Assembly (NCBI RefSeq): GCF_003334405.1
Contig: NZ_QOWM01000075.1
Source of the DNA: Escherichia coli
GTDB lineage: Bacteria > Pseudomonadota > Gammaproteobacteria > Enterobacterales > Enterobacteriaceae
Strand: one strand, 5' to 3'
Length of the DNA stretch: 232 nt
The notes under the pieces are model-generated. The model was not told the DNA's origin and did not search any database. It was given only the letters and a program-made list of their open reading frames with translations. Of this stretch, positions 191 to 208 are shown in pieces. Each line of letters opens with the position of its first letter. Position 1 is the first letter of the stretch. A program made the position numbers and the translations under genes.

Positions 191-208
191 GAACAACGAA
201 AGTTGTTC
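191..208 (+). other. Predicted RNA hairpin with GNRA tetraloop in the pre-23S spacer (possible processing or folding element)
   Basis: Seen in sequence: 191-197 gaacaac is the perfect reverse complement of 202-208 gttgttc (7 bp), closing a GAAA tetraloop at 198-201. Its function is not established from the sequence alone. Confidence 0.4.

Follow-up and report, generated by a model that had tools for sequence, protein, structure and literature searches.

The window analysed here, a 232-nucleotide stretch of Escherichia coli DNA, opens with a tRNA-Glu gene (anticodon UUC; positions 1–76 of the plus strand, on which all features described below also lie) that was identified by ARAGORN, matches the Rfam tRNA family with 60 bits and is annotated as tRNA-Glu in E. 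coli genomes. The window is therefore a 16S–23S spacer of the tRNA-Glu type from an rrn operon, with 16S on one side and 23S on the other in the reference E. coli operon used throughout (L001, flanked by clpB and kgtP). E. coli chromosomes carry it with 100% identity, at a median of seven places per genome across 5425 genomes. The annotated 23S rRNA start in L001 corresponds to window-equivalent position 270, that is, 38 nucleotides beyond the end of the window.

The spacer contains a boxB-like hairpin at positions 110–149, formed by an inverted repeat with 16-nucleotide arms (88% complementary) and a cUUCGg loop, which is present in both the minimum free energy (MFE) and the centroid folds. 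Directly 3′ of this hairpin lies a boxA element, tgctctttaaaaa (positions 150–162), read from the sequence. Together these two elements (110–162) constitute the spacer boxB–boxA nut-like antitermination site. BoxA is the element of the spacer antitermination site that is bound by NusB/NusE (PMC10250234; PMC8632103), and a second boxB–boxA–boxC set, in that order, has been described upstream of 23S (PMC10250234). A match to the Rfam family StyR-44 (RF01830) starts inside boxA and runs past the end of the window (positions 154–232, 93.4 bits within the window); the full match in the reference operon covers L001 4154–4262 (window-equivalent 154–262) and scores 124.9 bits, against a gathering threshold of 54 bits. 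No promoter-like signal was found in the window.

Two short recurrences within the window are probably due to chance: the anticodon arm of the tRNA-Glu (CTTTCAC, 33–39) is perfectly complementary over seven nucleotides to GTGAAAG in the spacer (92–98), and the sequence GAAAGT is present twice (94–99 and 198–203).

The hairpin at 187–211 in the E. coli sequence

Within the StyR-44 match, the sequences GAACAAC (191–197) and GTTGTTC (202–208) form fully complementary arms (100%) around a four-nucleotide GAAA loop (198–201). No other perfect 7-bp Watson-Crick hairpin with a loop of 3–8 nucleotides exists in the whole window. The initial annotation had described an uninterrupted 7-bp stem with a GAAA loop at 191–208 and had placed it just upstream of 23S; the first description is exact, and the second was confirmed by a distance of 62 nucleotides between the 3′ end of the hairpin and the annotated 23S start. 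The predicted fold adds three basal pairs (CAC with GUG; 187–189 with 209–211) and leaves U190 bulged, giving a leader–leader hairpin that extends from 187 to 211. All of the structures described here are thermodynamic predictions or comparative inferences.

The predicted folding energy of nucleotides 186–213 is −11.4 kcal/mol (z = −3.5), with one of 200 shuffled sequences being as stable, and the seven core pairs have predicted probabilities of 0.997–1.0 whether the spacer alone, the leader alone or the leader together with the trailer is folded. A perfect 7-bp hairpin with a 3–8 nucleotide loop appeared in 8.4% of 5000 dinucleotide shuffles of the spacer (77–232), and the version with a four-nucleotide loop appeared in 2.2% of the same shuffles. 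Taken alone, the single sequence is thus weak evidence, and the hairpin is only mildly unusual in it.

Two other identities for this element were considered and rejected. The window contains no terminator-like sites, and with two G-C pairs among the seven core pairs and a tail reading GUGAGUCU the hairpin does not correspond to an intrinsic terminator. Nor does it correspond to boxB, as it is positioned 24 nucleotides downstream of boxA, and the boxB slot is filled by the hairpin at 110–149.

The RF01830 consensus structure includes the exact hairpin (three base pairs, a bulge, seven base pairs and a four-nucleotide loop), and the lower-case letters in both of its arms mark those positions as variable. 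The hairpin is therefore an ordinary feature that is already known and catalogued. The initial annotation missed this family membership, as well as the pairing of the immediate flanks of the hairpin with the 23S trailer that is described below.

Stem and loop variation across genomes

We scanned one genome per species for boxA (using GCTCTTTAA as an anchor), followed by a gap of 95–125 nucleotides and the 5′ end of 23S. This yielded 70 loci with 50 distinct leader sequences, a collection with no Salmonella and few non-enterobacterial taxa. The Enterobacterales set comprises 30 distinct variants of the interval between two invariant anchors, AAGCUGAAAA and GUCUCUCAA. This is a small and phylogenetically clustered basis for comparison, with 30 leader variants, plus 14–20 leader–trailer pairs from about 10 genera. 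In two of the loci, labelled 'MAG: Oxalobacter sp.' (L054) and 'uncultured Desulfovibrio sp.' (L057), the boxA-to-23S spacer is identical to that of the E. coli reference operon; both are probably mis-binned Escherichia rrn contigs.

When each sequence was folded individually, a single hairpin filled the interval between the anchors in all 30 Enterobacterales variants, with stems of 8–20 bp, energies of −9.2 to −20.4 kcal/mol and z-scores of −2.8 to −6.1. The stems themselves comprise at least 11 unrelated sequences: one type is found in Escherichia, Mangrovibacter and Superficieibacter, another in E. albertii, a third in Enterobacter, Klebsiella and Citrobacter, and further ones in Franconibacter, Dickeya, Edwardsiella, Xenorhabdus (three types) and Photorhabdus (two types). 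A hairpin is also predicted, by co-folding, at the equivalent position in Arsukibacterium. In Catenovulum, a non-enterobacterial relative, a long leader–trailer helix is predicted and no hairpin was predicted at the equivalent position.

When leader and trailer sequences were concatenated and aligned with plain MAFFT, RNAalifold did not recover the hairpin. The cause is register, as the bulge is located in the 5′ arm of Escherichia-type hairpins and in the 3′ arm of Enterobacter-type hairpins, and stem lengths differ. The hairpin was therefore tested on a subset sharing one register, alongside the folding of individual sequences. The 17 variants in the E. coli register were aligned with MAFFT from sequence only, with no fitting to structure; in this alignment the five core pairs are 97.6% paired, and each of them has changes on both sides. 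Neither the observed pairing nor the covariation score was reached by any of 500 column shuffles, and control positions slid along the same alignment were 22–60% paired. The outermost eight MFE pairs of each sequence, which are structure-fitted by construction, were used solely to describe the diversity of pair types.

The loops, in contrast to the pairing, are not retained. GAAA is present in five of the 30 variants, GCAA in one and GAGA in one, bringing the GNRA class to seven; the remaining 23 loops are non-GNRA sequences of 3–8 nucleotides, such as GCUCA, UUAA, ACCGA, UUGC and CCGUAAUA. In the explanation favoured below, the stem would matter and the sequence of the loop would not.

Comparison across enterobacterial spacers, which the initial annotation had named as a means of checking the stem, thus bore it out, with hairpins in 30 of 30 variants and compensatory changes in five of five core pairs. 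This comparison lifts the hairpin above the chance level that applies to the single sequence, and the argument is a strong one. The element at 187–211 is a real, conserved stem-loop in the part of the pre-23S leader that is removed before mature 23S is formed.

Flanking strands, the 23S trailer and StyR-44

Co-folding of the E. coli leader (from boxA to position +8 of 23S) with the 3′ end of 23S and the 23S–5S spacer gave a predicted energy of −99.1 kcal/mol, versus −64.8 kcal/mol for the separate strands. The hairpin was kept in the presence of the trailer, with a probability of about 1.0. Pairing of this region with distant sequence, such as the 3′ flank of 23S, had been raised in the initial annotation as an outcome that would speak against the stem; the hairpin itself does not pair with that flank.

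It is the strands on both sides of the hairpin that are predicted to pair with the trailer. On the 5′ side, positions 161–182 form the leader strand of a distal leader–trailer helix (co-fold probabilities of 0.82–1.0, and also predicted by RNAalifold from 14 species or operons), in which AAUCUG (161–166) pairs with CAGAUU (L001 7223–7228), UCA (169–171) pairs with UGA (7218–7220), and the immediate 5′ flank of the hairpin, GCUGAAAAUU (173–182), pairs with GAUUUUCAGC of the 23S–5S spacer (L001 7207–7216). On the 3′ side, positions 214–229 form the leader strand of the next leader–trailer segments (co-fold probabilities of 0.86–1.0), with UCUCUCA (214–220) pairing with UGAGAGA (L001 7199–7205) and UUCGC (225–229) pairing with GCGGA (7194–7198). 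A GAAA strand at 183–186 remains unpaired in the co-fold; together with AG (212–213) and one A on the trailer side, it makes up the strands of a three-way junction. This strand is part of a UUGAAAC motif that is identical in most of the 30 Enterobacterales variants, a minority of which carry insertions of one or two nucleotides or one substitution. In these models, the long 23S leader–trailer (processing) helix has a three-way junction, with the hairpin as its side branch.

The same architecture, with the hairpin between flanking helices, was predicted in 20 of 20 Enterobacterales leader–trailer pairs and in Arsukibacterium, and leader–trailer complementarity with predicted pairing was found in all 25 co-folded pairs (20 of them from Enterobacterales). 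RNAalifold, applied to a plain alignment of the 14 concatenated sequences, likewise placed leader–trailer helices on both sides of the hairpin. In the distal helix 95.6% of alignment cells are paired, and one pair is compensatory (UA in eight sequences and AU in six); none of 500 shuffles matched these values, and slid controls reached at most 53%. The other changes in the adjacent leader–trailer helices are one-sided or involve wobble pairs, and these helices are almost without true covariation because their leader strands are invariant.

Shuffling of the trailers gave results that differ between segments. For GCUGAAAA, 3–8 of the eight nucleotides pair with the trailer in native co-folds (5–8 in 19 of 20 pairs), versus means of 0.8–3.0 with shuffled trailers. 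GUCUCUC pairs with the trailer in 20 of 20 pairs, a comparison for which the control is weak since GA-rich shuffled trailers also pair. The UCUCUCA and GAGAGA elements are complementary everywhere and invariant, and for them the shuffled mean lies within one nucleotide of the native value in five of 20 pairs and above it in one.

Conservation is strong over positions 169–186 and 209–221: none of the 30 Enterobacterales variants departs from the leader segments GCUGAAAA (173–180) and GUCUCUCAA (213–221), and the adjoining CAA, UUGAAAC and GA are close to invariant. The trailer partners of these segments vary (examples are GAUUUUCAGC, AAAUUUCAGC, GAUUUUAGC and GAGAUUCAGC). The constraint on the leader segments exceeds what pairing needs, and they may represent the spacer equivalent of boxC or a site of contact with protein.

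Several operons from the same genome (L003 and L004; L050, L051 and L052; L010, L011 and L012) have a common 23S leader and different trailers, the differences being insertions between the GAGAG and UUUCAGC elements. Leader–trailer structures are therefore heterogeneous within a genome. A second small leader–leader hairpin, in the ACGAUGAUGAAUCGAAAG region just past the end of the window (L001 4233–4256), occurs in Escherichia and in certain Enterobacter and Klebsiella operons, with a shorter segment instead in four other loci (L025, L047, L049 and L069). This hairpin, too, is a variable branch of the leader–trailer structure.

The RF01830 consensus contains, in addition to the hairpin, an outer helix that pairs positions 173–182 with 221–229. 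In E. coli this helix has predicted probabilities of 0.5–0.95 without the trailer, and in the co-fold with the trailer it is fully displaced (probability 0.0). Its pairing across the 14 sequences amounts to 76.8%, no compensatory change occurs in it, and despite an invariant 5′ strand it is disrupted in four or five of them (in Xenorhabdus, Photorhabdus, Dickeya and Edwardsiella). These predictions suggest that the RF01830 structure probably depicts the fold of an excised or leader-only RNA and not that of the precursor. For Escherichia-like spacers our inference is that the local fold exists transiently or after cleavage at most, with the hairpin constant in both states.

The S. Typhi RNA cloned as StyR-44 is 109 nucleotides long and is encoded upstream of 23S in each of the seven operons (Chinni et al. 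2010, PMC2943607). The same study detected a discrete RNA of ~109 nucleotides on northern blots of S. Typhi and E. coli, found it to be growth-rate regulated, and allowed that it might be no more than a metastable intermediate in rRNA maturation (PMC2943607). RNase III leaves seven nucleotides at the 5′ end of 23S and eight at its 3′ end (PMC7261194). The StyR-44 match ends at window-equivalent position 262, immediately before the RNase III cut, with positions 263–269 as the remaining precursor nucleotides; the 3′ end of StyR-44 thus coincides with the cut. StyR-44 is most likely the excised leader strand, a by-product of processing.

A probable structural role for the hairpin, alternatives and known systems

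The explanation that we favour, and regard as very probable, is that the hairpin is a leader–leader stem-loop of the pre-23S leader that branches from the three-way junction and has a structural or organising role. The hairpin would fold co-transcriptionally on leaving RNA polymerase and would then stay folded. In Escherichia-like spacers its flanks, GCUGAAAAUU and UCUCUCA..UUCGC, would first pair with each other to form the StyR-44 outer helix. Some 30 s later, as estimated from the 2904-nucleotide length of 23S and a rate of about 90 nt/s given in a bioRxiv preprint, the 23S–5S spacer, 2.9 kb downstream, would be transcribed and would replace the flank–flank pairing. During this wait the leader might be tethered near the RNA exit channel via boxA, by analogy with the 16S leader, for which a model has been proposed in which anchoring of boxA delivers the leader strand to the trailer (PMC10250234; PMC8632103).

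Once the trailer had annealed, the hairpin would jut from a three-way junction in the middle of a helix spanning from just after boxA to the ends of 23S. It would thereby absorb roughly 25 extra leader nucleotides that have no partner in the trailer; sequestered in this way, those nucleotides would be neither single-stranded nor mispaired, and the register of the two helix segments would be fixed. The RNase III cut seven nucleotides before 23S would then free the leader piece that carries the hairpin, to be seen transiently as the 109-nucleotide StyR-44 RNA. The role of the hairpin is likely structural; it may contribute to 50S assembly or may be merely tolerated. The proposal in the initial annotation that the hairpin takes part in pre-rRNA folding or processing fits this position inside the leader–trailer helix.

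The most serious competitor, although we consider it unlikely, is that the hairpin has no positive function and is a tolerated, fast-evolving insertion in the leader, self-complementary because unpaired extra nucleotides would be harmful through nuclease attack or mispairing. The sequence, length (8–20 bp) and loop of the stem do vary freely while the flanks are invariant, as this would predict, and Catenovulum has no predicted hairpin at the equivalent position; against it, a hairpin is found at the exact position in every sampled Enterobacterales variant and in Arsukibacterium, and deletion, which would be the easiest neutral outcome, is seen in none of the sampled lineages. Much further down the scale is a reading in which the loop is the functional part, docking in a receptor within the pre-rRNA or being bound by protein. 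A stable stem capped by GAAA is a classic motif for tertiary contacts, and GNRA loops are found in Escherichia, Superficieibacter, Pseudenterobacter, Mangrovibacter (GCAA) and Dickeya (GAGA). The variation of the loop largely refutes this reading, with 23 of 30 variants being non-GNRA, and a stem whose length ranges from 8 to 20 bp would shift the loop in space. The part of the earlier proposal that treated the GNRA tetraloop as a motif for tertiary contacts or protein recognition accordingly did not hold, with GAAA itself in five of the 30 variants and any GNRA loop in seven.

Two further alternatives concern StyR-44. That the hairpin is the functional stem-loop of an independent, trans-acting small RNA seems to us highly improbable. 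The discrete ~109-nucleotide, growth-rate-regulated species on northern blots (PMC2943607) and the curation of StyR-44 in Rfam as a gene both speak for it, but the Rfam match begins within boxA and its 3′ end coincides with the RNase III cut, anything rrn-derived would be expected to be growth-rate regulated, and the discoverers themselves allowed for a mere metastable maturation intermediate (PMC2943607); a hypervariable hairpin is, moreover, unlike the seed of a small RNA or a conserved protein-binding site. Somewhat less remote, and still improbable, is that the local StyR-44 fold (173–182 with 221–229, enclosing the hairpin) is the final structure of the precursor, with the leader–trailer helix stopping proximal to it. 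The curated Rfam consensus, and the probabilities of 0.5–0.95 for the outer helix in the leader alone, are consistent with such an arrangement. The predicted loss of that helix once the trailer is present (0.0), its 76.8% pairing with no compensatory change and its disruption in four or five of 14 sequences argue the other way, as does the distal leader–trailer helix, which is better conserved and has a compensatory pair.

An extension of the structural reading is more speculative, and we regard it as improbable. The junction strands UUGAAAC and GAGUCUCUC are conserved beyond the requirement for pairing. In this extension, the always-folded hairpin would be the fixed hinge of a timed switch, in Escherichia-like spacers from the StyR-44 fold to its displacement by the trailer; the two junction strands would form a boxC-like site recognised either by an assembly factor or by some component of the rRNA antitermination complex, and the junction would act as a checkpoint in 50S assembly.

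The hairpin has little significance beyond its correct annotation as a catalogued piece of the rRNA precursor. It does illustrate that homologs need to be checked before a GNRA loop seen in a single genome is taken for a functional tetraloop. The RF01830 consensus, for its part, probably represents the excised or leader-only fold, with the flanks predicted to be paired to the 23S trailer in the precursor, which puts a three-way junction at the base of the hairpin. If the 23S leader–trailer helix were to be dissected by mutation, as the 16S helix has been, the hairpin branch and the conserved junction strands would be obvious targets.

Among the closest known systems is the 23S leader–trailer helix itself (Young and Steitz 1978 and Brosius et al. 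1981, as cited in PMC11404451); long helices of this kind flank 23S, with variable leader–leader and trailer–trailer helices (Gemler et al. 2024, PMC11404451). As in that system, complements flanking 23S form a long helix that is cut by RNase III and carries variable branches formed by the leader only, and the hairpin described here is predicted to lie between two of its segments. This exact hairpin is presumably drawn in the published leader–trailer model for E. coli 23S. The boxB element of rrn and lambda nut sites is similar in being a short stem-loop near boxA in an antitermination region; it differs in its location upstream of boxA (110–149 in this spacer), whereas the hairpin lies 24 nucleotides downstream, inside the leader–trailer helix. 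The E. coli copy resembles the GNRA tetraloop/receptor motif in presenting GAAA on a stable stem, and, unlike that motif, its loop varies among homologs. The likeness to StyR-44 is complete for the hairpin itself: the window scores far above the gathering threshold of the family, the same hairpin is present, and it occupies the same place upstream of 23S in every rrn operon; the one difference is in the surrounding structure, where the RF01830 outer helix is not conserved beyond the core Enterobacteriaceae.
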